DNA from: Amphiscolops sp. MND2022
Lineage: Eukaryota
Direction: 5' to 3'
Length of the DNA stretch: 64,000 bases
Assembly: GCA_964187785.1 (NCBI GenBank)
Contig: OZ076414.1
Coordinates: 62,001-126,000, forward strand
Shown piece by piece: positions 15,770 to 43,688 of this stretch. Position 1 is the first letter of the stretch; the number at the start of each line of letters is the position of its first letter. The notes under the pieces were generated by a model. The model was not told the origin of the DNA, did no database searches, and saw only the letters and a program-made list of their open reading frames with translations. The translations under genes were made by a program, and so were the position numbers.

Positions 15770-18700
15770 TGATGCGTTCTGTTCAAGCAAAACCAGGATT
15801 GGGTTATCCTCCTGGGATTCTCTTTTTTCGAGTAACTTCTGGGGTTCCTGTATTAGGGCGGGGGTTCGGGGTTGTTAGCAGATGTTCGTCACATAGGTTA
15901 GGGTGTGAAACGTTGGGTTCGGGTTGCTTGACCGCTGTTGCGGGATGCGTGGGGGTTTGGTAGGTTTATTGCCAAGCTATTGCGTATAGGTCGTCGTGCT
16001 GTATGACAACCTCATTGTCTGGCTGAAAATTTTTAGGGGATACTGAAATATTGGGTAGTTTGTGGTTGCTAATGAAGGGTCGTAATCTAATTCTATGCAG
16101 AATCTGTATAGAATTTTTTTGGAGTTTTTGCACTAAATAGTCATTTTTAGGTAGTCTTTTGACCATGATATATGGCCCCGTCCAAAGGTATCCTCGGAAC
16201 GGCAGGTTTGTCTCTTGGCTATGCGCCTTTGGGTGTAATGTATAGCAGTAGTCGTTTAATACCAGGGGGTTTGCCTGATGCCTTCTTGTCATAGTAATGT
16301 TCATAAAGGATATGCATCAGTGATTGTTGGGTTTGGCTGATGATTTGCTTGGTTAGTTGTCGTTGCTATGTTAGGATGTCGTTGCTGGTTAGGAGCTCAG
16401 GGTGTCGTTTCAGGACGTACTCGCGGTCGAGTACGTTCTTAGGTACTCTACCGTGGAAGACTCTGCTGGGTTCACAGCCTTGTGACGAATGGTAGGATGT
16501 GTTGTAGTGTAACACTGCCATCGGCTAGAGCTGGTGCCACATCGGTCGCCTCCCCCCTGTCATGATTTTGAGGCTTTCTTCGAAGGAGCATGGGGTCTCG
16601 CCAGGACGCCTATCGTCTGTGCATTTTTGGTGGTGGCGTGTTTCATCTGGATGCCCATGACTTAAGTTGTTTGTTCCAATGCTTGGGATATAATCTGGGA
16701 TCCCTTGTCAGTGATTATCCTTGTTGGTAGGTAGCAATGTCTAGTGATGATGTCAATTAGTACTCAAGTTACTGTTTTCATGTCGATTCGTCCAACGCTG
16801 TAGGCGAAAAGGTATCGTGAAAACACGTCCATGGCCGTAATGATTGCATTGTATTCTCCTGATGGGTCATCAAATGGTACAATGTCCATCCCTAGGGCAT
16901 CTTCAGGACCATTTGCTATCCGTCATGTCGATCATGGATGGGGTGATCGTGCTGTTTGGCTTCCTTTTTGTTGGAATGCAGTCCTTGCACTGTGACATGT
17001 GTTGACATATTTTTAATGCAAATCCTGGGAAGTAGTAGCGTTTGCGGCAAGGCTGTATGCCTTTAGCGATGCCTGGGTGTTTGACAAACATCCCGTGCTG
17101 ATGTTGAATGAACTAGTCTACTAGTTGTTTTGGCAGTAGGACCTGTGTCTCCAAAGTATTGTCTGTATATTTGTCCATCTTTGATGATGATGCGATCTTC
17201 TTGTGCAAGGTACATTCCTGCTCTGCTGTCCTCGTTAGGGAGTTGATTGTCGTATGGTTCTTTCATTAGTTCAAGTTTGAGATTCCTGAGGATGGGGTCT
17301 TGGTCTTGCTGCGGCCTCAGGCTGCGTGGAAAATTGTTGTCGTCGTGCAATCAACGTCTTTGTTCGCTCTCTTGATCTTGCATGTTGTTGCATACGGGTG
17401 GTAGATTCTCCGTTTGAGAGTTTGTATCAGTGGGTCATTCTCGGTGTCTGTTTGTTGTTCCCAGCGGGTACATGTTTTCTTTCTAGCTCATTGTTTTTGT
17501 TCCCAGATATCCTCTTCAGTTTTGGAACTGGTCTTCTTCGTGTATGTCAGAGGACTGGATTTTCACTTGGATCGGTGTTCTTTGAATGTCCTCTCTGATT
17601 TGGAGAAGAACTTTGTCCTTGGGGTTAGTGTCCAGGCGGGCGAGGAAGTCCGTCGCCGTGCTAATTCTCCCTGGTACATAGGCGATTTGTTTTGTGAAAT
17701 TGTAGTACAAAATCACAGGCGTTCCATGGGAGGGTGGAATTATTTTGCTTTGAAAAAACCTGGTGACGGAATTTTTGTCCGTTAAGACAATTGTTGGTTT
17801 GGAGGAGCCCCACAAAATATGGCTGTACTCCATGAAGGCGAAGTAGGTTGCCAAAAATTCTTTAGCATAAATTGACATTTTCAATTGTGATTGTGAGAAA
17901 ATTTCGGAGCCAAGGGCAACTGGAGCGTCGTTTTCTTGGTGAATGTTATCTTTTGTGCCGGGTGTTCCTCAGTCATCAAGGCGTACCAGCGTTCTTGAAA
18001 TTAGCATTGGTCGTCACTACGTACTGCCGGTTTGGCGGCAGCTGTTTGAGCCAGACTCCGCATGCGTTGTCGAGCGACTTGTTGATGGGTTCAAAGTTGG
18101 TTATCAAATTTTGGTCAATTTTGCCTGGTTTATCTGACTTTGTGTGCTCATGAAAGGGTGTGGTTTTCTCTGATAATCGGGGGATGTCATTTCTGTAATA
18201 ATTGACAAACCCGATGCATCTCTGGAGTCCTTTCTTTGATCTGGGGAACTTAGATGATTGTGGGTTGTTTTGAATCTTGTGATTCTGGGGCGCCACGCCT
18301 GATGGGGAGATCGTCCATCCCAAGACTTCGACTTCCTTGGCACCGAACTGACCTTTGGTCTTTGTAAGCCGGAGTGTTGCTGTGCGGATGCATTGAAAAA
18401 TCTCTCTCAAAGTGTTTTTCAACTCTTTGGGAGTGGTTGTGGCTAACTCCAATGTCATCTACATGTTGGGCGCATGTGTCCGCGTTTATGGCGGTGTCCA
18501 GATTTTCCCTCATGAAGCTTGAGAAAGATGACAGCGAGTGGCTCAGCCCCTGGGATAGTCTTAGGTACGCGAACGTCCTGCTGGCGAAGTTGAAGGCTAA
18601 AAGTTGGACTGACTTCAGATCTGCCATTTGCAGTACATGATAAGCTTGCGAACAATGAAGCTTGAAGAAAAACTTCTTGCTAGCAAGTTGTTGCGCTGCG

Positions 18701-21307
18701 TCTGTTAGCGTGCTGACCGGATGGATATTGTTGATATTATCATCGGAGATTAAGGTATTGATTTTTCTGGGGTCTTCTAGAAGGCACAGTCTGCCGTTCA
18801 GTTTTCGTTGCGCGAAGATCGGGCTGGCATATTTGCTGAACGGTAGAGTTGTTATGATTCCGAAGTTGTGCATTATTGCCAGTTCGACTGTGAGGTCCTC
18901 TTTTAAGTTGATAGGGCAGGGCAGGGTTTGTGAATAGACGCGTTCGTCAGTCTTCAAGGTCAGCCTTGTTTTAATTTCGTGGTTGATTCCGATGTCTAGC
19001 CTGTGTCTGGCGAATATATCGTTGAATTCAGCATATATTTGTTCGATGTCTTTTTGGTCTTCAAGTGTTAGTTGCGAGTCATTGCAGTTGATGTGTTTTA
19101 GGAATGATTCACGGTCCTCGGGACAAGTGGTTGGGTCCAATTTTTGGATTTCTTCTAGTTCCTGGATTTCTCGCTTTTGATTGGCGTATGGGTAGTTGGG
19201 TCCCCTGGGTTGTCTGGTGTGGGGGACAAGAAGTTTTGATTCGGGAGCATGGTTTGGTTTCTCCGAGGTCTTGAGCAGCTCATTGATGTAGATGATTGTG
19301 TCTTCTGAGTCATCTTCTGTGAGTACTTTGAGCGTTGATGTGTTTATTGGCTTCAGTTCTTTGGCCTTTTTGGGGGACATGATCTTGAAATCCGCTGTGG
19401 CTGTGTTCTTTTTGATCGTGTAAGGGGTATGTGCGGTGTTAATTACCTAACGTCCAGTTGCGGTTTGCTGCCGTCGAGCTGGATCTGGCTAATTCCAGCC
19501 ACCAATTGATTGGTGGCAGGGTTAATGAAACCTGTTGTGTCGGCATTTGATGATCCATCTGTGTGGACGGTGAGTCGTTTCTGGGGTATGGTTATAGAGT
19601 TTTTGGTGTAGAGTCTGTAGAGTTTTCTGTTTCTAGTGCTCTCATATGTGGCAATTGAATACGTAAAGTGGGGGAAGTGTAAGAGGCCTTGGCTTACGTC
19701 TAATATGGCGCTGTTGTTCTTTAGGAATGTGAGGCCGAGTATGTGTCCGGTGAGCCTCTGGGCAAAAATGAACGTTTCTTTGAAGTTCCAGTTTCCGATT
19801 TCGAATTGGAGGAGTATGGTTTTTGTTGGAGCTTCAATGTCGCCATTTGCGATGTGAAGTTTGAATGCTGGTGGCTCCATTTTTTTGACAAATGTCTTTG
19901 GGGGACATCTGGCGGATCTTTCTGTAGTCTGCTCCTGACATGCAGTTGACTAGTGCACCTGAGTCGATTAGTGCGTCTAGGGTGTTGTCTTGAAAATCGA
20001 TGGGTGCGAACAGCATTTTCTTCTTGCGTTGGAGAGCAATCGCTGAGAAGATTGGCACGCAAGTTTCCTGGGTTATTGTGTGTCGTGTGAGGTATTCTGC
20101 AATCTGTGCTATTGTGTAGGACTGGGGTTCGTCCTGAGTTGGTGTGTCATTTACATCACCTGAGGGGGCTTCATTTTGCATTTTGGTTGCGGCAGCCGTG
20201 GTTACGGCAGTCGAATTGTGGTTGCGGGGGCTCCTCGACTTCATTTTCGGACTGACTCGGTTGAGACTGGGTGGAGAAGAGAGGGGGTGCAAAAGCAGGG
20301 ACCTTTTGTTTCTCCTTGTTTGCGGTTTTGAGATGATTTTCTCCATGTTTGTTGTGGTGTTGACTGGTCAACGGCTTCAGTTGTGTTCCTGTAGAACTTT
20401 TCAGTTCGATGGAAATCGGGTGCCATATCTATTGTTGGTGATCGTAGATTTCCGGCTCTGATTGGGTTCATTGGTGGATCTTTGTGAGGTGATTGGTGAG
20501 CCGTGTTGTGTGAATCGGTATTTTTGAGTATTGATTTGGTTGTCTTACTTGTGTGGTCGACTAATATCTCGGTCCTACGTTCTGCGTCCTGATTGTATTC
20601 TGGGACTGGGACAGGTTGGACGTTTTTGATCGATGACGTGGTTCTGTGGAGATATTCATCCCTGTTTGTTTTATATACTCCTCAAATTGCATGCACTCTC
20701 GTAGTCTGAAGGTCAGGGCTGATCGGTCGTAGATTTGGGGGTTGTGGTAGGGATCACAGTTAAAGTCGGGGTCGTGGATGTAGGTTTCGGGGGAAGTAGT
20801 TGCGGGTAGGAGTTTTTTTGGAGTATCGTAGTCGGTTGGGTTTTCCAAATACCAAAGTGGGTAGTCTTTTGTATTGAGATTTTGACGTTGGTGACGGTTG
20901 AGTTTTTGAATTTGCCATCTTCGCTGCCGGTAGAGAGATCGTTGTTCATGGCACTTGTATTGTTCCTCGTGATCGTATGCGCTTGGGGGCCCTGATGTTG
21001 TATAATGTCGGGTTCCGACAATTTCCCCAAACTGAAGATGTGGCGAAGCTAGATTTTTGGACAGGTTTGTTCTTGGGGTTGAATTTGGGGTTGTGCTGTC
21101 ATCTGGACTGGGGGTTTGTAGCCATTTTAGTTGATTGTATGGTTGCGATACTGTGTTTGAGCCTTTTCACATTATCTTTTACGTACTGACGTTGTGGTTG
21201 TGGTGGTATTGGGATAATTGTTTGGTGTGGTGGTTTCCGGTGTTTTCCACCATTGTGGTCTGTTTGCCCATTTTGCACCTGAATATCAGTCTTGTGTTGT
21301 GTGACTT
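15770..21307 (-). pseudogene. Gypsy-2 gag C-terminus and pol (protease, RT, RNase H, integrase), frameshifted
   Basis: Protease LDALIDSGALVN (19834-20346); RT PFSKYASPIFAQRK, AYHVLQM, HVDD (18250-19380); RNase H KEFLATYFAFMEYSHILWG (17516-17884); integrase HPGIAK...CKDC (16903-17091) and GPY (15966-16304). Confidence 0.93.
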
Positions 21308-21329
21308 CATTACGACGCCAATCGGGGAA
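21308..21329 (+). repeat. Left TIR of element B (CATTACGACGCCAATCGGGGAA)
   Basis: Exact reverse complement of 60892-60913. Confidence 0.97.
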
Positions 21330-21339
21330 GTTTTGATTT

Positions 21340-21700
21340 TTTCAAGAATTGACAAAAGTTGGTTTTCTCACCTACCAAAGCGTGTTTTCAAGAAATCACA
21401 AAGTTGTGCACTTCAAAGAAAATGGTAGTGCCGCCAAAATGATTGAAGAATTCACACACTAATATTAGCAGTGCAAAAATGAAATTTTCAAGAAACGAGA
21501 AAATTGATTTGTGGATTCTTCATTTTAATGATAATCTATGCTGCACGTGTAACATCATTGGTGTGAGGATTCTTCGCATTTTGTCATTTCTTGTTTACTT
21601 TTCTGAATTCTTGATTACTTTTCTGAATTCTTGAACACTTTTATGGATTCTTCTAAAAAATATGGTAATTAAATCTAACTTCTTTCTGGATTCATCAAAA
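21340..21700. repeat. Left subterminal motif cluster of element B (TTCAAGAA / GGATTCTTC)
   Basis: Several copies. 21340-21359 (TTTCAAGAATTGACAAAAGT) is an exact inverted copy of 60805-60824. Confidence 0.75.
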
Positions 21701-21917
21701 ACTTATCTCTGTTCTTTATAACAATAACTGTAAATAAAATCGTAAAATCAACGGAGAATCGACACAATCTGATTGAATTAAGATTTTTTGAAAAGTTTGT
21801 CTATTGTTCTATTTAAATTCAAACATAATATCTTCGTCAAATATCTCTAAACGACTCTTCTAGAGCAAAGTAACGACTCCATGAGTGTATGAACAACAGC
21901 TAGTTCATTCTTCAAAT

Positions 21918-21938
21918 CATTACAAGACACAACTTTCA
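21918..21938 (+). repeat. Left TIR of element A (CATTACAAGACACAACTTTCA)
   Basis: Exact reverse complement of 41266-41286. Confidence 0.96.
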
Positions 21939-22054
21939 CGAGCCTCAAAAGTTTATTAAATATCCTTAAATGCTCCACAAGGGAATTTTCACTGGCCCCT
22001 AATGTATTATTTTTTGTATTATTATTACCTATTTGTATGTTTTAACTTTTTCGA

Positions 22055-22310
22055 AAATTTAAGGATTTTTAATATTTGGTGAAAACGGAGGATTTTATAT
22101 ACCTACTATCAGGAAACCTAATGCGACTTATTAGGATTTCTAATAAATATCCATAAATATCCCCATTATAAGGATTTCTTATACTAGTGTCAAGTATAAG
22201 TTATACTATTTCCGCGGAGAACATATAGACAAACAGTATTTCTTATACACAAAAAGGATTCATTATACACAAATAGGATTTCTTATACTAATCTTTAGTA
22301 ATCCTAATAA
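22055..22310 (+). repeat. Left subterminal motif cluster of element A (AGGATTTCTTATAC-like)
   Basis: About 7 imperfect copies; inverted variants (TATAAGGAA...) at ~40975-41230. Confidence 0.65.
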
Positions 22311-22690
22311 AAACGCATGTTATTGTGGTTTTGACGAAAATGCGTTTGCAGTCGCTTGCAGCAATTCGCTGATTCACAGTAATTTTAATAAAGTAATTTT
22401 GATACACAATTAGAAGTTTTTTAAATCACAAGTTATACACTTTGTCCTGTAAAATTGTTTAAGAATTCCGATGCCTCCTCTTGCTCATTGTAAATTTCAC
22501 TCTCTACCAGCTTAGCATTTTTCCTCAGAAGTAGTTGAAATAATTCAACGACAAAAATCGAATCAAGAGCTATCTAATTCCTCGAATTTATTTATTGGTA
22601 AAAGTAAATGTTAATATGATCTAACGAATAACAAAGTAACCAAAATTTACATCAAAAAACAGAAACGAATAATTGAAAATGCACAAGTTA

Positions 22691-24272
22691 TCAAGCTGCC
22701 AAGGAGGTTTTTGTGTTTTTCGAGATTAACTCGCGATAGTTTTCATAGTCCTCGTAGTTTCCTCTGTGTCCTTGAACTTGAATTTTGAGGGCTTCAAAAG
22801 CGAGACTGGTTTTTACTTTGAACCGCACCCCCAAGAGGACATGATTGAAAAACTTCTCAGCATCCGGCCTGGTTTCAAGGAGATCCCATTTCTTACCGAG
22901 AATTTCATCAAACACTTTGTTTCCATGCGATCCCCGCTCCTCGTTGATAGTGAATTTCTGCCAATGGAAGAAAACTAATGAAATACAATTATAAAACAAA
23001 CGCTTGATGAAGGTTTCATGTATAGTCTTCAGATACAAAATTGCTGAAAGTTATGAAAGCCCTTGGAGTTGCAACGCTGGATTAAAAAATTGTTCAAGAT
23101 TTTCAATGCCCTGGGAAGTTCAATAATTACACTCCACAGTGTTTTCAAAGACTTGTTGTCAATGATGCTATTAACTACTTTGACAATTAGCATATGCTTA
23201 CCGAATCTCTTGACGATTCACAGCCCAAAACTTGCCTAATGTAAAATGGCACAGGACTGTATATTATTTCTGTGTGGCTGATTGTGTCGTAAGAGAGGAA
23301 AAGTTCCCGTTTGATGGCGGAAAACACTGTGAAAACTTCATCAACTGGGTGCAAGTTAGGGTTCCTCACTGTGAGTTCTGGGGATTTCATATAATTGATT
23401 TCCTGTTGCTTCTTAAGTGATTGATTGGGGTCTACTGACAGTCGAACTTCTGTGGCTGGCAGTCCAATGTATCTCTTACTCCCGTCTAAAGTTACTTCTG
23501 CCATCGCGTGCGCCTCCCTGCGGTCAAAAAAAAGCTTTCGTACAACCCCCGTCTGTGACAAGTCTATTACAACACGTGATCCTGCTGCTAGTATTCCGTT
23601 CGTAGTGGGAACAAGTGTCAGGCTAACGGTTTCGTCAGATCCGCACAATGCCCGCAAAATGTCTCCAATGTTGATCTTCGACAGTTTCTCTTTCACTACA
23701 GCTTTCACTTCAACTTTCAATTTTTTGGCAACTGGGATTGGTATCATTTCTTCTTCGTCAGCTATTCCTTCTTTTTGCCAGTCAGAGTTCCTCAACTGGT
23801 TGTACGAAATATAAAACTTCTCCACATTGGAGCAAATCAGCAAAGTTTTTCTAAACCTATCATTGATTAGCACAGTTCCAGATTTCAAAACTGATGCTTC
23901 TTGGATCATTTGTTTCATCTCCCAAGGCTCCATAATATCACCAACCGATGGCGCAGTCGACCCAACAAAATATACTATATCGCCTTTTGCGAATTTTTCC
24001 TTAGTGTAATCCAGTTTGTAATCAATATTGTGTCGTCTGGGAAATAGAACTTCTTCAAGAGCTTTCCTGACTGGCCAATTTTCAAGATGAACTTGGGGGT
24101 CACAAAAAAGAACCCGAACAGGGTCCTTGTTTTTTCCCCAGCGCGTAAAATTAACACGAACATGATTGGTGCCTTCAAAACCTTCGATTTTAGCCTCCTC
24201 CCAGATTTGAGTGTCAGGATCCAAAGCTTGAACGACTGGCTTAGTCTGGAAGAAAACATTGGCAAAAAGCAT
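22691..24272 (-). CDS. Tudor/Agenet-like domain protein with conserved unknown C-terminal domain (element A), 2 or more exons
   Basis: VQALDPDTQIWEEAKIEGFEGTNHVRVNFTRWG is a Tudor-like pattern, followed by a second KGDIVYF unit. GT-AG intron ~23200-22965. C-terminal GSH...LGKKWD...YRELISKN matches the paralog at 41910-43377. Start codon unresolved. Confidence 0.75.
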
Positions 24273-24614
24273 TGTTGATTGTTCAAAATTGATTGACCAA
24301 TTTGATTCGAGGTAAAGCGAAGAGTGGAAAATGAAATTTACGGTTTCTGAATGCTTTTAAATTGCGTCTTCGCAAGTCATAATTTGCCTCAATTCAGTTC
24401 TGGTGTTAGACTCAGATTTTTGATGATGTTGCAATGTGAGTCCGTTGACACCAAATGTAAATCTACGGCACCTGTTTCTCTTTTCGATGAAAGCGTTAAC
24501 GCGGATAAGCGTATAAGAATGTAGTAAGCCTCAAATGTGAATGTTGCTAATTTTGGTAAACGTTTTCCCATTTATTTCGAAATCCTATTCCTTAAAAGCG
24601 GTCCCGGTATTACA

Positions 24615-27600
24615 ATGAGTTATTGCAATGAGGAGATAATTCTGAAAAAACACCTAATCAATTTGCCAGAAGGCCTGTATGTTGATTTATCGTTATTCGA
24701 CTACTTAGCAGAAGAAACAATAAATGACAAGCAAAGGAAAGTGAAACCAGCAATCACTTGTCTCTTGAATGGCACAAACGTTCAATTCACCGATGTTTTC
24801 ATCAGTGCAACGCGCAATGAGACAGGTAGACGAGCAAAATACAATGCTGTGGTATTCAAAATTGCACTCTTGCTTGTCTTTAAAGGATTCACTGGCCTAT
24901 CGTGGACAGATCGTCTCCGACGCTTTGTTGCACACTTCTTCGGCCCAGAATTCATTCCAGACGGAAAGCCAGTAGAAAACAACTCGGAAATTAGCAAATT
25001 CTTACGGAAACTGGAGAATCGAGAACCACCAATAGCAAAAAATTCGGATTTACACGAGCCCGCTTTTTGTACTAGTAGCAATCATTTCTGGAGTGATGTG
25101 TTGAATCAAATGAACAATCGAGATTTGGAAATTGGGACTTTGATTCAACATTTGAAAAATAAAGCCTATATTGCTACCGAAAAAAACTTGTACAACGGCC
25201 TAATTATTTGAAACAAATCATGAAAGCACTGTTCCCTTCGAGATACACCCATCAATTCATGGAGCATTTGTATTTGATCAAGAAAACTGGTAATGTTGTT
25301 GATTTGGTCGGTTATCTCAAGACTTTATTTGACTTACAGGGCATAAGAAATGATCAGTTAGTTCCCAGTGTTACAACATTAAACAAATTGTCAAATCCTC
25401 TACATTGCTTTTATTACAACATATTCCAACCGGAGAAGACCTACTCAGGTTTTAGAGCCGATTTGATTACCTTAGTGAGAACCTCTCACTACCTTCTGAC
25501 GGGAATTGAATCGTTAGAAGGTGTTGCAGTTGATCTTTGGGGTGACGGGGTTGAAATTGGGAACTCGGAGTGTACGAGAATGGTTTTCCGATTTCTTGAT
25601 ACAAAAGGGAAAATCAGTCCACAATCTTCAGATGCATGTTTCACATTTGCTTGCTTCAAAGGTTTGTGCAAAAGTGATTGAACGTTGTTAGGAAAAATGA
25701 ATACTTTCTATTCAACTAAAGTGTTCAAGAAAATCAATGGTTTAAACTAAGCAAAGATGTTAAACTGAAAACGAGTTGCGTAGCAATATTAACAAACTAT
25801 AATGGAATGTTTTCAAGCGCTTTTAATGTAGTGGATAAATCTATTGTCTATCTCAAGTTTTTACATATGTGAATACAGTTGTGAACAACATTTGTTGTTT
25901 TAAACGAGTCCTTTTCGTTTTTCAAACGAACTGTAGAACCGCAGTCGATGCTTTATATTCAACTAAACTGATTCGAAAACTGTTGATATATTTTGAATAT
26001 GAAAAAGATCTATAGATTCGTTTGAATTATGTGAGTTAATTGACCATACACTTGCGAAGGAAATTGTGCATTAAACGGTAAAAAATTGGAAAAACGGAAA
26101 TAAGTCCCGAATTAGCTCGAAATCAGCTGTTTGTAACTTTCTCAAATTTTGTCCCGGAAAATCTTTTAAAAAATATCAAGAAACTTTTCTCACATTAATC
26201 TCATTGGTTTACCAGCCTCAATAAAGAAGTAAATACTTGCATTAATATAAGCAATTCGCTAGAACTTTTCTTCAAAAACATGCTATATCAAATATTTTTG
26301 TACCAAAGATGCAGATACGAGACTGTTTTGCACATGTTTGCAGGTCATGATAGCAGATTTGCAATGGAACAAAACCTCGGCCCAACACAAGTTGGAGTTC
26401 AAAAGAGTGGATGGCTTTACCAGCAGACACAGACGCTGGTCGAGGACTACAAAGTGAAACTGACGTTGTCCGGCGATCAGCCATTTGTAATGCGATTGGT
26501 TAATGGTGACAACGTTGAAGACGACTCCAAATGCGCAATCTATGTTGGCAAAAAGTCGTCAATTGGTTTTGACGTTAAAGATGGAAAGAAAGTTTTCCAA
26601 CCTTTTTTGTCAACGACAGTTGATCCCAAAACGAAGAAACGGGCAACGCTGAATATACCCTGGCAGGTGTTACCGTCAACTTCCCTGGTTTATCTTGACG
26701 ACATCCGAAGAGTTTGCGTTGACACTTGCCATGGTATCACAAGAATGGTTGAGAATGACTTGCAAAAGTTTTGCAATCTACTAATTGAGACCCGCGGGAA
26801 AACAATTTACACCGTTTTGAACCTATTCGAATCCAATTTAACCGAGAGAGGAGTGAAGGAGCCCAGGTTCAGATTTAATATCAATACAAGCAAAAACGGA
26901 CCAACTAGTTGCAATTCTGTGTCTTTAAGTGGAAAAGAAGCCCTGCTCGCGATTGCTCATCGGGACGAATTTGGAAGCGACAGTGGAATACAAAGCAACC
27001 TTTTTGATAATGTCTTCAAAGAAAACGAGTACTTAGTGGGCCATCCGGCTAACCTAGAAACTCTTAAACTGTGTCACAAAACACTTTTCAAGCATGAAGT
27101 ATTACTTGAAGACAAAACAAAACGGTATTTGATGTCAAAGTACGATGCCGCAGAGCTATGGCGGCAATCCTTGAACAATATGAACATTATTCTCAGAGGT
27201 TCGAAAAACGGTTTCCCTCAAAAACTCATTGATGAATACAATTTCTGGGCGGAGACATATTATCATATCTCAATGGCTTTCTTTGGCGAAGTTACGCCAT
27301 ATAAAGTGAAAATCCTTCTTGTTCCCAAATTGGTCGAATCGGGTTGTATTCGGTCACCTTGGGACCACTTAACCGAAGCAATGGAGCACTCGAATCATCG
27401 AGCACATCAATTCTACCATCAAAAGACAATGCGCGGGGGAGGTAAACTACTTCACGTTGATCCCATGCTTCAAGATCTGGTTTTGTCGTTTTTTCGATGT
27501 TATATCCACAGCAAGCAACAAATCGCTTTTGAAGAGTGTATGATGCAGCTCCGCAGTATCTTCCGGCCAATTCCAACTTTCCACATAGATTACCTATGGA

Positions 27601-28253
27601 TATGTAGGAAAACAATTAAAGCGAGGACTATTCAAATCGATACACCTTGCGAGAAAGATTCGATTTTTCTAGGCCTACGTTTCACCGTATTTGGAGATTT
27701 TCGAAAAGCTAACCTAACGCAGGTTCAAGTGAACAAGATGATTCTCGAATGTGGCGGCCTGGTAATGACCCAAGATGCCCTGAAAACACTGACTGAAAAG
27801 CACTCCCATCTACCGTTTTGCTATGTTTTAGTACAAAATGAAACAGATCTTAGAATAGCAACTGGAGAACCAGGGGTTGGCCGACCAATGGAGAAACGTG
27901 AAAAAATTGTCGAAAAAAAGGAAAGAGCTTTAAAGTTAAGATGTTATGTACAATCGGGAGTTGTTTTTTTGAACGTAAAGTTTGTTGTTGATTGCTTGAA
28001 CAAACGTACTTTGCTTGATCCAGCTAACTATGAAATAAAACCAGGAAATGACATACCAATAGTGCCCATTCGTGACATGAAGCCCTTGTTCAAACGACAA
28101 TGCGAGGCCAAAGAAATAATTGAAGGAGTTACCAAAGGCCCGTTTGTCCTTATCAAAGAATTTCGGAAGCAAAACTACTCAAACCTCACACAAGACATCG
28201 AGAAGATATTTGGCAAAAGACATACAAAAAAAGATGAGACGTCATCGTTTTGA
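24615..28253 (+). CDS. DDE transposase (CMC/Transib/RAG1-like) with C-terminal BRCT domain (element A)
   Basis: Motifs DLWGDG (Asp codon 25544), SGDQPF (26475), VDTCH (26721), TEAMEHSN (27375-27386); BRCT-like IFLGLRFTVFG...ILECGGLV...FLNVKFVVDCL. Intron 25662-26343. One -1 frameshift near the A7 run at 25180-25186. Confidence 0.88.
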
Positions 28254-28481
28254 ACTTTACATCCTAATTTCGTTATTAATGCTGGTTTTAAATGTTGTTC
28301 CCTTTGTGACGTTGTATTTCTATAATGTACCCTAGTCTTAAATAATCGAAAAAAAATCTGCACACAAAAGATTGTTTTCAAACAGAAGTGACTGGTGCAA
28401 AGGGCTCAAAGCAACAAGTTCTAATTAAATCTAAATCTTACTGGTACAAGAAATCTCACAGGAAATATGTTTTCCGAGGCA

Positions 28482-29848
28482 AAGTCGATGCACACATTAG
28501 TCTCGATTACTGTTTAGGAGAGTCGATGCACATATTAGTCTCGATTACTATTTAAGAAAGTCGATGGACACATTAGTCCTAATACTGTTTAAGAAAGTCG
28601 ATGCACACATTAGTCTCGATTACTGTTTAAGAAAGTCGATGCACATATTAGTCCTACTACTGTTTAAGTAAGTCGATGCACTCATTAGTCTCCAATACTG
28701 TTTAAGAAAGTCGATGCACACATTAGTCTCGATTACTGTTTAGGAGAGTCGATGCACATATTAGTCTCGATTCCTATTTAAGAAAGTCGATGGACACATT
28801 AGTCCTAATACTGTTTAAGAAAGTCGATGCACTCATTAGTCTCCAACACTGTTTAAGAAACTCGATGCACACATTAATCTTAAGACTGTTTAAGAAAGTC
28901 GATGGACACATTAGTCTCGAATAGTGGTTAAGAAAGCCGATGCACTCATTAGTCTCCAATACTGTTTAAGAAAGTCGATGCACATATTAGTCCTACTACT
29001 GTTTAAGAAAGTCGATGCACTCATTAGTCTCCAATACTGTTTAAGAAAGTCGATGCACACATTAGTCTCGATTACTGTTTAGGAGAGTCGATGCACATAT
29101 TAGTCTCGATTCCTATTTAAGAAAGTCGATGGACACATTAGTCCTAATACTGTTTAAGAAAGTCGATGCACTCATTAGTCTCCAACACTGTTTAAGAAAC
29201 TCGATGCACACATTAATCTTAAGACTGTTTAAGAAAGTCGATGGACACATTAGTCTCGAATAGTGGTTAAGAAAGCCGATGCACTCATTAGTCTCCAATA
29301 CTGTTTAAGAAAGTCGATGCACACATTAGTCTCGATTACTGTTTAAGAAAGTCGATGCACATATTAGTCCTACTACTGTTTAAGAAAGTCGATGCACTCA
29401 TTAGTCTCCAATACTGTTTAAGAAAGTCGATGCACACATTAGTCTCGATTACTGTTTAAGAAAGTCGATGCACATATTAGTCCTACTACTGTTTAAGAAA
29501 GTCGATGCACTCATTAGTCTCCAATACTGTTTAAGAAAGTCGATGCACACATTAGTCTCGATTACTGTTTAGGAGAGTCGATGCACATATTAGTCTCGAT
29601 TACTATTTAAGAAAGTCGATGGACACATTAGTCCTAATACTGTTTAAGAAAGTCGATGCACTCATTAGTCTCCAACACTGTTTAAGAAACTCGATGCACA
29701 CATTAATCTTAAGACTGTTTAAGAAAGTCGATGGACACATTAGTCTCGAATAGTGGTTAAGAAAGTCGATGCACATATTAGTCTCGATTACTGTTTAAGA
29801 GAGTCGATGCACATATTAGTCTCGAATACTTTTTAAAAAAGTCGATGG
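28482..29848 (+). repeat. Minisatellite array 1, 37-38-bp unit AGTCGATGCACACATTAGTCTCGATTACTGTTTAAGAA, ~36 units
   Basis: Direct reading; identical block at 339-bp offset (28774-28959 = 29113-29298). Confidence 0.97.
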
Positions 29849-30024
29849 AGTTCAACCTTAAATCTTACTGGTACAAATTTCAACAAAAACAAAGATTGTT
29901 TTCAAACAGAATTAACCTGTGCAAAGGTCGCAAAGTAACAAGTTCTAATGAAATCTAAATCTTACTGGTATATGTTTCAACAAAAACAAAGAACTATTTC
30001 TTCTTTTTCAAATAAACCCCTGGT

Positions 30025-33000
30025 TTAGAAGCCACACATGGTGTTCATGTATTCGATTATCTCCGGGAGTTTGGGGTACTGCGGTATATCTGTATTGTAT
30101 TTCGCGACTTCACTCAAACTTGCACGGAACGATCTTCGGATCCCGTTACGCATGGAATTGGGTAGCATTGAGGAATAGCCTTCATGTATAGTCCAAATTT
30201 GCCAAAATATTTCTCCTTCTTCGTTAATGGGGTGTGGGGATGCTTGCTTGTTAAATTTCGCTTGTTTGCATCGACGGACAAACTCAGATACCATGGCAGC
30301 AGACAGGTGACAAAAATGGGGAAAACATTTGCAATATCTGACCTTCCTGATCCTCTCCTTCATGAATTCATTGAGTGCTGCAGCTGGAAAGAAAACTTTT
30401 TTAAATATTCATTGAACATTAAGTAATAAAAGAAAAATAATCAATACTGTCTTATGATCATAAGTTTGGAGCCACCTTTTTCAAAATTTTATTCAAACTT
30501 TTGCCAACATGAGATACTAACGGTATTCCTGAAAAGTCAAGAAGTTTGTCCCTACAGCCACACTGTTCGCTATTGTGGACACGAAGTGGAGCGTTCCTGC
30601 TGGGATTAAAACGCCCTGTCCGGCTTTCAAAGTGATTCTGTAGGCCTGAAGATCTCTTCTGCCTCCGAAGAACCTATTAACGGATGTCGTTGTCCTAGAT
30701 GACTGAAAGCTGGCCAGTCCTTCACCAAGCTTGCCGGTCTCGTTCACAAAAACGAACTCTTTTTCTCCGGCAAGGAGGACGTAGAACACAGAGGTTCCAC
30801 TGAAGTCCACGTGCCAGTCAGCGAAACACCCAGCTTGACTGAGGATGACGTAGTTTAGCTTCCAGACGCTGCTCTTATCTCTTGGGAGTCTCATTTGCAA
30901 TTTGTGTCCCAAGGAGATTTCTTTCACAAAGTTCGCAGGCTCGAACTGCAGACTGTTGCTTGTTGTTGCGTTCAGATCAATGATGTTCATTGGTCTGGAG
31001 AGATCGAACTTGAGGAAATAGGTTTTCAGAGGCATGGTCTCAATTTCGAACTCGTGCTGAAAAATTAACAAAGATGTAATAGTGAAATATAACTCTAACA
31101 AAAAAGGCTGGAGAATTATTGCCGATGATATTTCATCCTACATTGACTTGGAAACTTGTTGACAGTGATAATTCACGCTCAGTGTCTAAAGTGTATAAGG
31201 TTTTCTTATAGGCCAAAGTGCTTTGAAGAATGTGAATTACTGATACATTTTTCTCTATTTATACATGATAAATGTATCAAGTTTCTTTAGATGTGTCATT
31301 TTTCAGGATTTCTAATCAACCGCTACGTTGGTTAGGCATTCATTTGAGAAAATAATCAAAAGTTTCTTACTCCCTTTAGCCAACTGCAGTTTACTGTCAT
31401 TTTTGGATCTTCTTTCGCTAATACTGCTCTGAATAAACGTTCATCGGTAAGTTTGAGGTCTCCAGCTGCAAATTTGTGTGAGAAGCCCTTCAGTCTGAGA
31501 GCATCAACTATCAACATCGGCTTCTTCACAATTCCTTTTAGAGCCGTTTTCAAAAGCGCTGAGTTTTGATCAAAGAATTCGGCTTTGTATTGCAAGTAGT
31601 CTATGCCCTCTTTGCCCATCGGCAACCATTCCACCAGTTGGCGCAGTTCTGTGGCGTCGCTAAACGTTGGGTAGCCATCAGGGTCAATTGAATTGATCGC
31701 TGAAAACACACGAAATCAAAAGATAGGACACTACAAGAAATCAACTTTTCAATTGCCAATGTTTAATATTCAGTTGTTTAGGAAAATAAAGGCTTACATT
31801 TTTTAAAAATAATTGCCTATAAAATGTCCTTAAATGTTTATAGATTTTTTAAAAAACCACGTACGATCATAGCTGCAAGAAGATTGTGTTGGAAGAGTTC
31901 GTCTCGGGGTCGGCGATTTTCTTGGATTCCGCTTTTTTGCAGGAGTAATGGGCCCGCCGGTAGGAGGAACGGCACCTTAGCACAAAAACAAATGTCAACA
32001 CAGACTATCATTTCCAAAACAAAAATTTTAGGAAATATTTAAAATACCTAGTACATTTCCCCGGATATAAAGTGGAAAAATAATACGTACGTTTCTTTGG
32101 AGTCAGGGATTTTCGTGGACTCCGCTTCCTTGCTTTAGCCTTCTGAAAGAGGGGAGGTAGAGGAGGAAAGAGTGTAGGACGAGAAGACGGAGCAAGAGGA
32201 GGACCAGGTGTACGAAAAAGAGAGTCCAAACGAGACGGAGCAGGTGTAGGAGGGGGAGACGCCATAGAAGAAGAAGCACCAGGTGTAGGAGGAGGAGGAG
32301 GAGGAGGAGGAGGAGACGCCATACGAGAAGGACCAGGTGTTGGAGGCGGAGAATCCATACGAGAAGGACCAGGTGTAGGAGGAGGAGAAGCAGTACGAAG
32401 AAGATTAGTGGCCGTTAGCGGGGCTGAAAACAATTTTGATAAGAAAGGCAGTAAAAATCTTATTCAATTCAACATCAATAAGACTTCAAAAAACTAACAA
32501 ATCTAATAACTTTATTTTATATCCCTAATATTTTGAAGCTGAATAATAAATCCCATTTCAAACTAAATGTAAAAATTCAAAATTAAAGGTAAAAAGGTTT
32601 CTCGATTTTTGTTCATGCTGTACGCCAAAACTTGTTCTGGAAACTAAAAAAAAGCGAACAAGCACAAAAATTGAAACCAATCTTATGTTCATTTGAAGTC
32701 TCTTGCAAATAAACAAGCTCTTCTTTTCAAATCCGGAAAAGAATTTAGAACCTCCCAATTCAATTTGAAGGAAAAAAATTTCAGGTTTTTCTGTTTCTCT
32801 TTCATGCCGTATTCCAATAATTGTTCAGTAAAATCTAAAAAAAACGGACAAGCTAAACTTATTATCATTTGAAGTCTCCTGCAAGTAATCAAGCTATTTT
32901 TTGCTTAACTGAACTTAGAGTTGTTCTATTCATTGGTACTCTTATTGTTACAACATTTTTTGAAGTTTCATTTTTTTGTTTTTTGAAAACGTTTTCCCAA

Positions 33001-34440
33001 AAGACTCTTTCAAAGCATTAGCAATAAAAGTTTTGGTTTACCGCAATTATCTTTTGTTGAAGCTTCCCCAAAGGGACCGCATATGCTGGGATTCGCGGAC
33101 GTTCTTGTCATTTTTGTAGTCGTCATACTTGTTGTCGTTATCGGGGCTAAAAACATTTTCAAGAAAAGCATTAAATCATAATCAATACAACTTCTTTCGA
33201 ATTTCGAAAAACTAACACAATGTTGCCTTTCTCTTCTGGGGCGATGTTAGTTTCGTTGTTGTTTTTGAGGCTGAAAAAACATAAATCAAGCAAAACGTTG
33301 AAAACACTAATCAAATCATCATCAGTGAAACTTCGAAATACTAACAAGAGGTTGCTCTTCTCTTTCGAAGCTTCGGCATTCTCATGGTCGTTATCAGCGC
33401 TGAAAACACTATTGTCAAGAAAAGCATCTAAAACCTAATCAAAACCACATCACTGAAGCATCGAATTACTAACAAGAAGTTGCTCTTCTTTTGCGAGGCG
33501 TTGTTGTTCCCGTGGTCGTTAACGAACCTGAAAACAATTACGTAAAAAACGCATTGAACATCTTAATAAGTTGAACATCAGATAACCATCGAAGTACTAA
33601 CAAGATATTGCTCTCCTTCTTCCGGGCTTTGGCATTCTCGTGGTCGTTGTTGCCGCTGAAGACACTACTAACAAGAAAAGCAGTGAAAGTCCTATTTAAT
33701 TTCACATGCAGTCGGGAATTGAACTGAAAAACTTATTCAACACTAACGAGTGCCAGACATTCTTCCTAACGGTGGAGTTGGATCCAGCTCCTTTACAGAA
33801 TGAGAGCCAGTGTAGTCTCTTGTAATTTGATAATTCGTTTTACCCGTGGACGACCGAGCGGCTACGTTGCTTCCATAGTCAGCCCAGCTGGCACCTGCTT
33901 TATGTCCTTTTTTGTAGTGGTCCACATTCAGAGGAAGGAATGCCTCTTTCCTCATTAGAGTGTATTTGAAAACTTGTTTTTCATGCGTCAGCGCTTGGAC
34001 AACTTCTCGAGTTGCTGCCAAGTACTCATCAGCATAAGAGTCTGGGTCTTTGAAATCCCTTTCCTGAAAATCCTTGTACGTCTTGTTCATAATCGCCTGT
34101 GGATTCGAATCTTCGATTTGCTTTCGCTGCCATTTGCAGTCGTAGTTTAAAGCATGCTGAGCAGTTGCCGCGGGACAGGTAAACTCGAAAAATTTCATTT
34201 CACCATCTTTGTCCCTCTTGGCAGTGCCTTTCATGCCACAAAACATGCATGTTTTCCATTTGTTTTTCGTTATCAAATCTTCAGCTGCTTTCAAAACGCA
34301 ATGTGACACATTACCCCGGCGTCTGTGCTGCTTCAGGGTCTTGGCGTTTTTGAAACTCTCTCCACAATCTAAAAGCATCAACAATCGATTCATAAAATAC
34401 CTCACATGCGGCCCATCAAGAAGTCGTTGAAAAAAAATTG
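30025..34440 (-). CDS. Multi-exon JmjC histone-demethylase-like protein, KDM2/KDM7 type (element A)
   Basis: FADWHVDFSGTSVFYVLLAGEKEF...LIPAGTLHFVSTIANSVAVGTNFL has the H-x-D...H triad and conserved Lys. Exons inferred at ~34370-33748, five micro-exons, a Pro-rich exon ~32424-32090, ~31975-31865, ~31700-31370, ~31060-30523, ~30382-30025. 5' end unresolved. Confidence 0.85.
32560..32900 (-). repeat. Diverged inverted copies of the 184-bp repeat
   Basis: Reverse complement contains AAATTGAATTGGGAGGTTCTAAAT and GCAAGAGACTT...ATTTTTGTGCTT, matching the 34.6-35.3 kb units. Confidence 0.75.
33042..33655 (-). other. Tandem micro-exon array in the JmjC gene: four 54-nt exons and one 105-nt exon
   Basis: Exons 33602-33655, 33474-33527, 33346-33399, 33217-33270, each with a ..TTCAG acceptor and GTTAGT donor at ~128-bp period, plus 33042-33146. 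All are phase 1-1 and free of stops. Confidence 0.8.
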
Positions 34441-34554
34441 AATAATTGCCAATAATGGATTTGTTTCCCCACAAGAGACTAAAACTAAAGAATAAAAATT
34501 TATTGGATGCAAAATGGGAGGTCCAAATTACACCAGATTGGGTGTTCAAAACAA

Positions 34555-35300
34555 TGACAAGTACACATGCAGGAGGTTTCAATGAACAAATTTTGGCTTC
34601 GATTTTTGTTTTTTAATTTAATTTGAAATGGGAGGTTCTAAATACATCTAGGGATTCAAAAAATTGACATGCACACATGCAGGAGACTTTCACAGAACTT
34701 TATTTTGTCTTCGATTTTTGTGCTTTTCCGTAAAAAACTGTTTTGGCCACTTATTGATGTACGTCATAGAGAAAAACTGAAACACTGGGAGAATTTTTTA
34801 TTAAATCTGAAATGGGAGGTTCTAAATACATCTAGGGATTCAAAAAATTGACATGCACACATGCAGGAGACTTTCACAGAACTTTATTTTGTCTTCGATT
34901 TTTGTGCTTTTCCGTAAAAAACTGTTTTGGCCACTTATTAATGTACGTCATGGAGAAAAACTGAAACACTGGGAAAATTTTTTATTAAATCTGAAATGGG
35001 AGGTTCTAAATACATCTAGGGATTCAAAAAATTGACATGCACACATGCAGGAGACTTTCACAGAACTTTATTTTGTCTTCGATTTTTGTGCTTTTCCGTA
35101 AAAGCTTTTTTTTGGCCAGATATTGATGTACGTCATAGAGAAAAACTGAAACACTGGGAAAAATTTTTTATTAAATCTGAAATGGGAGGTTCTAAATTCA
35201 TCAAAGGATTCCAAAAATTGACATGTACACATGCCGGAGGCTTCATCGGAACATTATTTTGGCTTCGATTTTTGTGCTCTCCCGTATAAAACTTTTTTGG
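34555..35300 (+). repeat. 184-bp tandem repeat, ~3.5-4 copies
   Basis: Near-identical ORFs at 34669 and 34853 (offset 184); further copies at ~35030 and ~35216. Confidence 0.93.
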
Positions 35301-36260
35301 CCAGTTATTGGGGTATTGAATCTGTGGGTGGGGTTGTAACTAACAGAAAAGATCCAAAACTTCATGAAATAATTGTAGTATAAAAATTGTGGATATAAAG
35401 ATACAAGACTGAATAAGATTGAACCAAAAAATAGAAATTCTGTTAAAAGGGTTTGTTTACATTGTCGAAAAATTGTTATATTATTCAAGGTTTCTCGTTA
35501 CAACAGAAAAAATAGAAGGATCCAAGCTTTTGCGATAAGCAATAATTACATGCAAATTTGTGCTGAAAAGGCAGATTAGTTAGTTATACGCCTATTTGGT
35601 AAATAGACTCTGATTATCTCTAGGCGTGAAATAGACATAACTCAGTTCGTTGCACTATATTTCCTTGTAATATATAACTCAATTCATCGTAAAAAGATGT
35701 ACCATCTTTTCATCGTAGACTATTGCTTGATAGGTCATCTTTTACAAAGCCCTATACATATATATTGCAAAATTGCAGAGTTGTTTAACTTACCATCGCA
35801 TACAGGCATTATTAGTTAGGATACAGGATACAGCATACAGAATACATTGATACAGAATACAGGATTAGTTAGCTAAAGCCGAGAAGTAACAGATCAACAG
35901 GTTAAACAAGTTGATGTGCGAAGTAAAGTGAGATGATGCTTGTTTAAATTTTTGAAATTAATGAATGAAGGCAGCTGAATTTGAAACAATGAAATGTCAA
36001 TGTAAAATAAATCAGACGCACGCTCAATTTTGAAAAAAGTTCAAGTAAATTGAAGCCATTTCTTTAAAATAGTCGATGCCTTTTCTTAGCGGTCAGAAGA
36101 TCTCAGCATTTCAACCAATCAAATTTCAGCACTGTCGTTACTTGTGGTATTTTCAATGACAGTTGAATGCGCATTGCAAACTTTGGTAGGATCAATTGTG
36201 TTCTGTCGAGTACTGTTGAACAAAATTGATGCCTGTTCTACACTTTACACAATCATCTGG

Positions 36261-37200
36261 AATACTGTTTAAGGAAATCGATGCACACATTACTGTCGAA
36301 TACCGTTTAAGTAATTCAATGCACACATTAGTCTCGATTACTGTTTAAGAGAGTCGATGCACATATTAGTCTCGATTCCTATTTAGGAAAGTCGATGGAC
36401 ACATTAGTCTTAATACTGTTTAAGAATGTCGATGCACAAATTAGTCCTAATACTGTTTAAGAATGTCAATGCACACATTAGTCTCCAATACTGATTAAGA
36501 ATGTCGATGCGCACACATTAGTCCTAATACTGTTTAAGAAAGTCGATGCACACAAAAGTCTTATGACTGTTTAGGAAAGTCGATGCACACATTTGTCTTA
36601 AGACTGTTTAAGAAAGTCGATGCACACATTAGTCTTCAATACTGATTAAGAAAGTCGATGCACACATTAGTCTTAATACTGTTTGAGAAAGTCGATGCAC
36701 ACATTTGTCTCGATTACTATTTAAGAGAGTCGATGCACATATTAGTCTTCAATACTGTTTAGGAAAGTCGATGCACACATTAGTCTTAATACTGTTTACG
36801 AAAGTCGATGCACACATAAGTCTTACGACTGTTTAGGAAAGTCGATGCACACATAAGTCTTAAGACTGTTTAAGAAAGTCGATGCACACATAAGTCTTAA
36901 TACTGTTTAAGAAAGTCGATGCCCACATTAGTCTCGATTACTGTTTAAGGAAGTCGATGCACATATTAGTCTCGATTACGGTTTAGGAGAGTCGATGCAC
37001 ATATTAGTCTCGATTGCTATTTAAGGAAACCGATGCACACATTAGTTTTAATACTGTTTAAGAAATTCGATGCACTCATTAGTCTGCAATACTGTTCAAG
37101 GAAATCGATGCACACATAAGTCTCGACTACTGTTTAAGAGAGTCGATGCACATATTAGTCTCGATTACTATTTGAGAAAATCGATGGACACATAATTAGT
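36261..37200 (+). repeat. Minisatellite array 2, same 37-38-bp unit, ~25 more diverged units
   Basis: Same unit and same orientation as array 1. Confidence 0.95.
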
Positions 37201-37675
37201 CCCCCTGTTAAAGGAACCCAAATTGACACTTTCAAAACTCAAAAATTGAAATTCCTCAATTATTTCATCCCCACGAATAAATGTTTTTTTAGTCAGCCTA
37301 AAAAAGTCAGCAGATCAGTTTAAAAACGTTCTGTAATCAACTAAAGTAATATGTATGCGTAGTTGTAATCAATCAAGAGTCGACTCAATTTCAGGCGTGA
37401 TTACAGCCGATTGCGTGTAAAATGAGCCGACCAGTAATTGAGAGTTATAATCCTTGTAATTATCACACCAATCTTCAGCATTCTATCAAACACTCTTGCA
37501 ACGCAAATCAAGAGTCGACTCAAATTCAGGCGCTATTAGAGCCAATTACGTGTGAATTGAGCCTACTAGTTTTTTTGAGTGATAATCTTGTAAATATCAT
37601 TCCAATCTCCAGTTAACTGTCGAACACTTGCATTTCAAAACTGCTGCTTCGAGATAAAAAACTCTACATCCCGAC

Positions 37676-40393: not shown

Positions 40394-41265
40394 TTGAACG
40401 AAAAGACACAACTGTTGGATGAAAAACATTGAACTTTTGTTGTATTTTGATTATTGTTGAAATCTGTTGTCTTTGCTCACTTGTTAAAAAATCTTTTGTC
40501 TTTGTTCTTTGGTCTTTTCAGTTGTCTAGGATTGTTCAATTGAATCAGGGACCTCTTTGATACCATGGCTCTAGAATTTAAATTGTATTCAAATATTTAA
40601 ATTTAAATAGAATTTAAAATCATCAACACCAATAAGAAGTAACTTTGATTTATCAAGATTTGAGAAGATCCCAACTCTCGCCGAGAAAATTGATGTTCAT
40701 GGCAATGGCCTTGTTCAAATTCGAAATTGTTTAAGATTTCCAATTCCCTGGCATTTACAATACGATTTCTTCAAGGTTTGCAGTTTATTGAATGAGATAT
40801 CAGCCGATTCGCCCAAATAAATGGTTCAAATACAGAAATGTTCAGGATTTGCACTTTATTGAATAAGATATCAACAGAGATTTGATTCAGTATATGTCAT
40901 TGGCTGTAATAATACCAGAATAATATTGCAATGGATACTATAATTCAAATCAGGAAATCTAAGAATACTCACAAGTTGTATAAGGAAGCCTATTTTCAAC
41001 AAGTTTTAAGCGTATTAGGATTTATAATACAAAGTATCAACATTACTTGTTTTGAGTACTAGGATTACTTATAACGTGGGGGGAAACATTTTGAGGCATT
41101 TGTATACGAATTATAAGGAATCTGATAATTATCAAATCTAAGGAAACTGAATACATTTGTAATGTATTAACAACTGAAAAATGTATCAGTAATACCAATA
41201 CTTCAATGCATATTGGCTTATAAGGAAAACTTAGGCATTTTAGACACGTATATTTACGCGCACTC

Positions 41266-41286
41266 TGAAAGTTGTGTCTTGTAATG
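41266..41286 (-). repeat. Right TIR of element A
   Basis: TGAAAGTTGTGTCTTGTAATG, reverse complement of 21918-21938. Confidence 0.96.
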
Positions 41287-41909
41287 ATGACTGGTCACGA
41301 CTGACGACCACGAGTGGACAAGTAGACTTCAGACATAGTTTCACGTTTCAATGACAGTTCATTTTTGTCTAGAATTGTGCTATTTGAAATCAAATATTTT
41401 ATATCCAAAGTTGTTTTGTTCATAAAGTAAATTTTATTTCAGTTTAATTTTTTTTTAATTCAGACTTTTTTCATTAAATCTAAGACTCCATGAGTGTACG
41501 ACTCCATGAGTGTATGAACAACAGGTGAGCAATATTTTTATGATTAAATTAAACCCCGGGGCGTATTCCTAAATACCTATAAATGACTAAGAAAAAATGC
41601 AAAATTATCTAAGTGAACAGTTGCAGTTTTTGATTCTAAATCATTTGACTCTGATTCTGGACTTGGAACTTTTTTGCTACTAGTGTTTCTGAATTAGCAA
41701 AATAACGACTCCATGAGTAAAAACAGATGCTAAAGAACATTTTGCTGGTGCTCAAAGAAAACACGGGTATTGACATACACGTTAGTTCATGCGTGTTGTT
41801 GATGATTAAAATTAATAACGATGGACAGATCATGGTTCATGTGTGTCATTGACAGTCAAAATTAAAAAAAGAATAGGTGTCAAAATTAAATAAATCATTA
41901 AATAAATCG

Positions 41910-43377: not shown

Positions 43378-43688
43378 TCCGAATTAGTTTTTTTGCTATA
43401 AATACTGGGTAATTTGTAGTCAAATAGATTGAGTTTGCATAGAGTTGAATTAAAATCAAACAGGCTGAAGTCATATGGAGGTGAACAAAATTTTAACAGG
43501 TGAAAACTCGAGTCTCAATTTGCGTTCAATCTGCCACATGTGCAAAAAGTGTTAATTACAACCCGCGACGAGTTTAGACTCGTATTCTCACTTTAAAGAC
43601 AGTGTGGAACTCAATTTTTGCTCATACACCTTAGTCCCATTTTAAATATTGACTAAACTTGCATTACATTTCAACCAACTCATCAACA

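Follow-up and report, generated by a model that had tools for sequence, protein, structure and literature searches.

What interrupts the gag gene of an old Gypsy retrotransposon in the 64,000-nt window analysed here (contig OZ076414.1 of Amphiscolops sp. MND2022, assembly GCA_964187785.1, positions 62,001 to 126,000), and what do the two ends of the insert reveal about it? A sequence-only reading had placed these ends 39.6 kb apart within a zinc knuckle of gag. Our analysis demonstrates three stacked insertions: an old decayed Gypsy element, then a 20.2-kb element in its gag gene, and then, inside the latter, a 19.4-kb element of a sister family. The two younger insertions, hereafter the outer and the inner element, come from a single lineage of DDE transposons that are large and autonomous and have CATTAC termini, terminal inverted repeats (TIRs) of 21-22 bp and 2-bp target-site duplications (TSDs) of variable sequence. 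The junction itself is an ordinary nested insertion; its value lies in the exact ends of a large, recently active transposon lineage. The host is a eukaryote whose genes have spliceosomal introns. Positions are those of the window and are collected in Table 1.

The outer element is bounded by a perfect 22-bp inverted repeat, the pairing of which stops at the TT flanking the element on both sides, with none further outward. The 22-mer has no third site in the window at up to 3 mismatches, and 0 matches were obtained in 100 shuffles. Because further perfect inverted repeats of 20-23 bp are present in this repeat-rich window, the outer ends are identified by their coincidence with both breakpoints of gag.

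Contiguity of gag was tested without joining the two halves, which avoids circularity: the query was the upstream half only (60915-61334, minus strand), and each half was aligned separately to the homologs with score cut-offs of 70 and 60. The upstream half alone retrieved 57 longer homologs. The second knuckle is reached by 34 of them, 31 of which have the whole C-x2-C-x4-H-x4-C followed by [YF]SGAN, the other three being truncated or frameshifted; in 11 homologs the residues across the break are the same as in the window. The halves adjoin with zero residues between them in every homolog that passed both cut-offs (15 of 15; the other 42 of the 57 did not pass both). The downstream frame from 21306 gives a median score of 114 versus the 31 complete homologs, whereas the two alternative frames reach 23-24 and reading on into the element gives 22, and tblastn places residues 4-410 of P0093 at 62098-60912 and residues 410-487 at 21306-21073. 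Since the halves adjoin without a gap and only the 21306 frame scores, the net surplus at the outer site is exactly 2 nt; with these ends, a TSD of 0, 1 or 3 bp is ruled out by the reading frame and the zero gap. The simplest reading is that the surplus would be a TSD, on which both sites (2 of 2) now agree.

These results bear out the sequence-only reading in the junction coordinates and the sequence at both ends, and independent homologs confirm that the insertion lies in the second gag zinc knuckle. The TGA that was read after C-x2-C-x4-H-x4 indeed stands at the position of the fourth zinc ligand of the homologs. The claim of a base-exact proof of the TSD length is slightly overstated, however: the 2-nt surplus is fixed, whereas the TSD is derived from the two sites. 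Similarly, both outer ends are supported at their distance of 39.6 kb, but this span comprises two nested elements, so that neither has this length by itself. Near the outer ends, at unequal distances from them, lies a perfect inverted repeat of 20 bp (21340-21359 / 60805-60824), a candidate transposase-binding site.

How do we know that a second element lies within the first? A scan for perfect inverted repeats returned 21916-21938 / 41266-41288, corresponding to a 21-bp TIR with flanking AT that bounds 19,369 bp. This inner element sits 610 bp inside the outer left end, and the outer element without it measures 20,235 bp. The two target duplications are both 2 bp and differ in sequence, TT for the outer and AT for the inner element. 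Three short motifs have 10, 17 and 13 copies in the outer part (1, 3 and 3 of these fall in its left stub of 610 bp) but 0 in the inner element; the corresponding maxima in 100 simulations were 0, 4 and 3. Conversely, a satellite core occurs in 29 copies in the inner element and nowhere else in the window. Exact look-ups found four inner open reading frames (ORFs) identical on 8-11 contigs each. Among the members listed (at most 15 per cluster), inner genes lie on 22 contigs and outer genes on 34, and the single contig common to both is the one holding the window's exact proteins. Of the 20 window ORFs looked up in this way, 10 were absent from the collection, probably through differing start calls, and give no copy information. 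The median identity to the window copy is 98.5-99.5% for inner copies and about 96% for outer copies (copies listed), while the Gypsy repeats are about 85% identical at the DNA level. This order of identity, inner > outer > Gypsy, matches the order of nesting, and age therefore supports the nesting. Thus, the motif partition, the separate contig sets and the identity order are three independent lines leading to the same conclusion.

To which transposase family do these elements belong? The main exons of the inner and outer transposases are 36% identical, and a quick tree of 45 sequences puts the two in different subclades (SH-aLRT 99 and 95). Relatives numbered 17 in a word search, and a profile search at E<=0.001 yielded 546 representatives, none of those shown carrying a name. 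No Pfam transposase family matches the window ORFs or their homologs; the only Pfam match on the transposase is a weak C-terminal BRCT domain, present in 13 of 32 family proteins at E<=0.05. PDB sequence searches gave nothing informative for the core, and a deeper profile yielded weak BRCT matches only. In the Atlas, RAG1 came up as a lead of low score (0.76). A first predicted fold (21 sequences; pLDDT, the predicted local distance difference test, 52.5) had RAG1 as its top hit with no match at E<=0.001, and it was superseded by a model of the homolog P0011 from 107 sequences (pLDDT 91.6; pTM, the predicted template modelling score, 0.90). With this model, Foldseek returned 47 matches at E<=0.001, the best at 2.8e-7, and every match listed is RAG1, BbRAG1L or HzTransib. 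A wide structure search gave VIA Z values of 17.1 for RAG1 (419 aligned, root-mean-square deviation 4.3), 16.1 for BbRAG1L, 11.0 for HzTransib and 10.1 for the P element, and BRCT structural matches fall on residues 598-717 of P0011. The predicted fold is of the RNase H transposase type. A structure search gave no viral match at E<=0.001, and no prokaryotic relative emerged: of 5 pattern matches in prokaryotic genomes, 0 were confirmed.

The acidic triad is conserved among the covering sequences (D in 44 of 45, D in 67 of 67 and E in 69 of 72), and a DxxH motif is also nearly invariant. Judging by their motifs, these D, D and E residues are the probable equivalents of the RAG1 triad. Downstream of the second D, C(2)C is seen in 1 of 59 covering sequences; H(3-4)H preceding the E is seen in 0 of 69. 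Conserved Cys/His residues at positions 262, 267, 483 and 493 of P0011 are candidates for what takes the place of the zinc site. The frame breaks of the two window transposases lie at homopolymer runs and are absent from most sister copies, so homopolymer errors in the window sequence are possible; the breaks are either decay or sequencing error. Among the copies listed, the broken segment is read through in 11 of 13 inner copies versus 2 of 5 outer copies. Programmed -1 frameshifting at the slippery-like A run of the inner transposase was rejected on that inner count, and the other broken inner copy shifts differently.

What else do the elements carry? When the ORFs of the inner and outer elements are compared all versus all, four genes pair up: the transposase, a SET gene (E 6e-23), a JmjC gene (E 3e-13) and a gene that we call gene A (E 5e-5). 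The inner and outer SET proteins share 25% identity over 469 columns, reaching past the SET domain. Pfam SET is above cut-off in both elements, the GxG, RxxNH and xDY motifs are present, and the outer SET domain is nearest to KMT5A/SET8 (E 4e-11). A Phe is aligned to the first Tyr of the KMT5A YDY motif; presumably, this position corresponds to the Phe/Tyr switch, and the Phe would then favour dimethylation. Six relatives of the inner SET exon were found by word search, all 77-99% identical. The inner JmjC protein is nearest to KDM7/PHF8 (E 1e-16) with intact HxD...H iron ligands. Demethylases of the KDM7/PHF8 type have an N-terminal PHD finger, whereas the outer JmjC gene model starts with C2H2 fingers. 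The homologies point to candidate SET8-like and KDM7-like enzyme functions of the cargo. The last junctions of inner gene A and of the inner JmjC gene, picked to keep the frame open longest, are tentative. An ORF at 59971-60333, close to the right end of the outer element, matches the inner JmjC exon at borderline level (E 0.02); it may be a decayed third copy or a chance match.

We consider it very probable that the anatomy and the transposition mechanism of this lineage are as follows. An old decayed Gypsy element was interrupted in gag by the 20.2-kb cut-and-paste DNA transposon, which later received the 19.4-kb element of the sister family at 610 bp from its left end. In each case, the transposase would bind the TIRs and excise the element, and insertion would follow with a stagger of 2 nt; the predicted fold suggests that the chemistry is probably of the RAG/Transib type. 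For the accessory genes, we can be only tentative, at somewhat less than even confidence: they may control the chromatin of the element that encodes them, its family-specific motifs being recognised by zinc fingers. The zinc finger-JmjC protein would bind these motifs and erase repressive lysine methylation, while the Tudor-like protein would read an H4K20-type mark set by the SET8-like enzyme.

Several points weigh against this picture. A single site next to a T4 run fixes the surplus, not the choice between a 2-bp TSD and asymmetric terminal bases, and the 2-bp length rests on two sites. The contig counts, which come from listed members on contigs told apart by their lengths, may include haplotypes or several assemblies. 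Both window transposase genes are frame-broken and could therefore be dead copies or mis-called ones; the predicted fold is that of P0011, a homolog 37-47% identical and not the window's own protein, and the triad equivalence was read from motifs. The Tudor call for gene A is weak (Atlas 0.80-0.83, recognition below threshold), with no Pfam or PDB match. In addition, the four-gene cargo was read in the two elements of the window, out of a family with ~540 other members, and the activities and targets of the cargo enzymes are predictions from the genes.

Alternatively, the accessory genes could steer DNA repair or target choice, as a private 53BP1-like module favouring end-joining at excision and insertion sites. 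It is established that 53BP1 reads H4K20 methylation; the kinship of the SET domain with KMT5A, the presence of Tudor_3 and the 53BP1 Tudor among the Atlas leads for gene A, and the BRCT domain on the transposase would all suit such a module. However, it leaves the family-specific motif arrays and the zinc fingers of the demethylase unexplained and leans on the same weak Tudor call, and we regard it as unlikely. Less likely still, the SET and JmjC proteins would act on non-histone substrates, for instance as an on/off switch of the transposase itself. An opposing writer and eraser do travel together in both families, and the identity to KMT5A is modest and limited to the SET domain, but the nearest solved relatives of both proteins are histone enzymes and the zinc fingers point to DNA, which leaves a switch of this kind improbable.

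It is also conceivable, but very improbable, that the accessory genes were picked up passively as fragments of host genes, in the manner of Pack-MULEs, and have no role in the life cycle. DNA transposons commonly capture genes, according to the available part of PMC6431247; here, however, the same four genes are kept in families with only 36% identity in the transposase, as multi-exon open frames with intact catalytic motifs. Finally, we assign hardly any weight to the idea that a single, internally duplicated element makes up the 39.6 kb or that its junctions are assembly artefacts. The gene content is indeed alike in both halves, and likely homopolymer errors are present, but TIRs and a target duplication of its own bound the inner element, only 1 of the 55 contigs listed is shared, and the motifs partition at the inner ends, which together rule out an internal duplication; moreover, the gag halves adjoin exactly. 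Our preferred reading stays with two nested transposons whose accessory genes may act on their own chromatin.

Table 1. Features of the window, with positions counted from its first letter
Feature	Position	Strand	Remarks
Outer left TIR	21308..21329	+	22 bp, starts CATTAC
Outer right TIR	60892..60913	-	22 bp, perfect match to left
Target duplication, left copy (TT)	21306..21307		2 bp
Target duplication, right copy (TT)	60914..60915		2 bp, start of T4 run
Whole insert	21308..60913		39,606 bp: outer 20,235 bp, nested inner element and one copy of the inner 2-bp duplication
Inner element	21918..41286		19,369 bp; perfect 21-bp TIR (21918-21938 / 41266-41286), starts CATTAC; AT at 21916-21917 and 41287-41288
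Inner transposase	24615..28253	+	DDE, predicted RAG1/Transib fold, C-terminal BRCT; frame break at A run near 25185
Outer transposase	43683..47196	+	3 exons, open 825 aa, then frame break at G run near 46685 inside BRCT
Inner gene A	22691..24272	-	Tudor/Agenet-like N-terminus (lead only); divergent from transposase; second exon tentative; identical on 8 contigs
Outer gene A	41913..43383	-	weak homolog of inner gene A (E 5e-5, 5e-4); exon structure tentative
Inner SET gene	37676..40393	+	3 exons, GT-AG introns, open 736 aa
Outer SET gene (KMT5A/SET8-like)	47869..50296	-	4 exons, GT-AG introns, open 575 aa; frame break near 50198, first exon
Inner JmjC gene, 3' exons	30025..31715	-	KDM7/PHF8-like, HxD...H intact; exon identical on 10 contigs
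Probable zinc-finger-like 5' exon of inner JmjC gene	33743-34393		position only, outside spliced model
Outer C2H2 zinc finger-JmjC gene	55024..58414	-	8 exons, 7 GT-AG introns, open 578 aa
Inner-specific satellite	28481..29847		38-bp units forming higher-order repeats of 113 bp; another array at 36256-37193
MITE-like insert (miniature inverted-repeat transposable element) in outer element	54077..54573		497 bp, ~38-bp imperfect inverted ends
Gypsy gag, 5' part	60915..62098	-	capsid-like region, first knuckle, first half of second; older frameshifts
Gypsy gag, 3' part	21073..21306	-	second half of second knuckle with stop, then conserved tail
Decayed host Gypsy pol	15969..19446	-	reverse transcriptase (RT), RNase H and integrase C-terminal fragments; Pfam RVT_1, RT_RNaseH, Integrase_p58_C
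Host Gypsy long terminal repeat (LTR)-like repeat	63142..63498	-	85.6% identity to 10368-10728

The host element has the features of Ty3/Gypsy: a gag with CCHC knuckles, followed by RT, RNase H and integrase, and terminal direct repeats. The repeat at 9756-10728, which matches its 5' end, includes an LTR and the beginning of gag (10135-9789 by tblastn), with a gap of ~780 bp, and looks like the head of a second tandem Gypsy copy rather than a plain 3' LTR. Between the end of pol and this repeat, ~5 kb (10730-15900) contain many stops and no Pfam match, an unusually long 3' region for Gypsy. A second decayed Gypsy-type pol (RT, integrase) lies on the minus strand at 1163-3063, extending up to ~8800, with strong GC skew.

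Within the inner element, tandem arrays of 184-bp and 128-bp units occupy 34610-35310 and 33270-33682, the first being inversely similar to 32551-32902. In the outer element, the MITE-like insert has TA at both ends, which could be a TA duplication. A dispersed repeat of ~130-160 bp is found in both orientations at 45073-45278, 50750-53917 and 60038-60208, one copy being inside an intron of the outer transposase, and the same set includes a ~1.5-kb tandem duplication with 82-bp units. One piece of this set, at 52609-52664, is an inverted copy of the outer transposase coding sequence at 46955-47010. No Rfam family was found in the window.

What would such a lineage mean? If the assignment is true, a zinc-less, BRCT-fused branch with a 2-bp TSD joins the RAG1/Transib tree and bears on the evolution of the V(D)J recombinase core. 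Judging from its genes, this RAG1-fold lineage may edit the chromatin that would silence it by means of its own histone-modifying enzymes; it would become testable whether transposons carry their own histone writer, eraser and reader, escaping silencing family by family. A transposase with 20-kb capacity and compact targeted chromatin enzymes could also serve as tools.

How, then, do the elements compare with known systems? The CMCT clade comprises EnSpm/CACTA, Mirage, Chapaev, Transib, Plavaka, ESTA as well as Lanisha, and is defined by CA..TG ends, TSDs of 2-5 bp and C(2)C and H(3-4)H motifs (PMC12730594). The window lineage shares with it a RAG1-related DDE transposase, 5'-CA..TG-3' termini (all four element ends start with CATTAC) and a TSD within 2-5 bp. 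In contrast, it is without two motifs, C(2)C and H(3-4)H, that the CMCT lineages named above all share, and it has a BRCT tail and a four-gene, 20-kb anatomy. The TSD of ESTA is TA-specific, whereas TT and AT were found here. Since the ends and the TSD agree with CMCT and the two motifs do not, the lineage works like CMCT but falls outside its membership. The transposase family is probably an undescribed lineage, set apart from the CMCT lineages by their published description. No account of this combination came up in our literature search, which did not extend to Repbase Reports, Dfam or subscription journals; the lineage may exist in those sources under another name.

Transib, RAG1 and ProtoRAG are the best structural matches and share the long spacer that separates the second D from the E. 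Transib elements have a 5-bp TSD, a length of 3-4 kb, a SxxCxxC motif and a single transposase of ~700 aa, and the D-E spacing is 206-214 aa in Transib and 253 aa in RAG1 (PMC1131882). The window elements differ in their 2-bp TSD, their sizes of 19.4 and 20.2 kb, their four genes and the lack of SxxCxxC, and the D-E spacing in their lineage is about 295 aa. Transib ends resemble recombination signal sequences with C, A and C at heptamer positions 1-3, whereas the third base is T at all four window ends. For a RAG2-like partner, which would be convergent with RAG1L, no kelch or PHD match was obtained, at the sequence level only, in 100 element ORFs of at least 75 aa, and gene A is divergent. 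The subject of 10.64898/2026.08.26.747230, in its available part, is ordinary Transib; 10.1101/2021.09.26.461848 and PMC4455052 serve as background only.

Other DNA transposons with an enzyme that edits epigenetic marks are the SET-bearing HarbingerS and MuDR of oomycetes and the TET/JBP-bearing elements of fungi (PMC12730594). They differ in transposase and host and, as far as the literature covered shows, have one modifier each, compared with a writer, an eraser and a candidate reader in the window elements. In Chondrus crispus, enlarged EnSpm families reach 16-20 kb with 4-5 ORFs; compared by description, they are similar in size and gene count, but are classified as EnSpm; JmjC and histone do not occur in the available part of that paper (PMC6431247). 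An analogy to the proposed circuit is offered by the VANDAL elements of Arabidopsis and their VANC proteins: there, too, related families have differing non-coding motifs, often in tandem, and element-encoded accessory proteins (PMC5735166). VANDAL is a Mutator-type system, directed at DNA methylation and shown experimentally, and the likeness to the window elements is anatomical only; in the literature covered, sequence-specific anti-silencing has so far been shown for plant VANDALs only. It is possible, although we hold it with more doubt than belief, that the window elements represent an undescribed, superfamily-level lineage of ~20 kb, sister to RAG1/Transib, zinc-site-less and BRCT-fused, with a conserved, self-targeted histone-methylation circuit whose DNA motifs diverge family by family. 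By analogy, and with the same doubt, this circuit may be a histone-based counterpart of VANDAL/VANC, and the lineage a new outgroup for the evolution of RAG.
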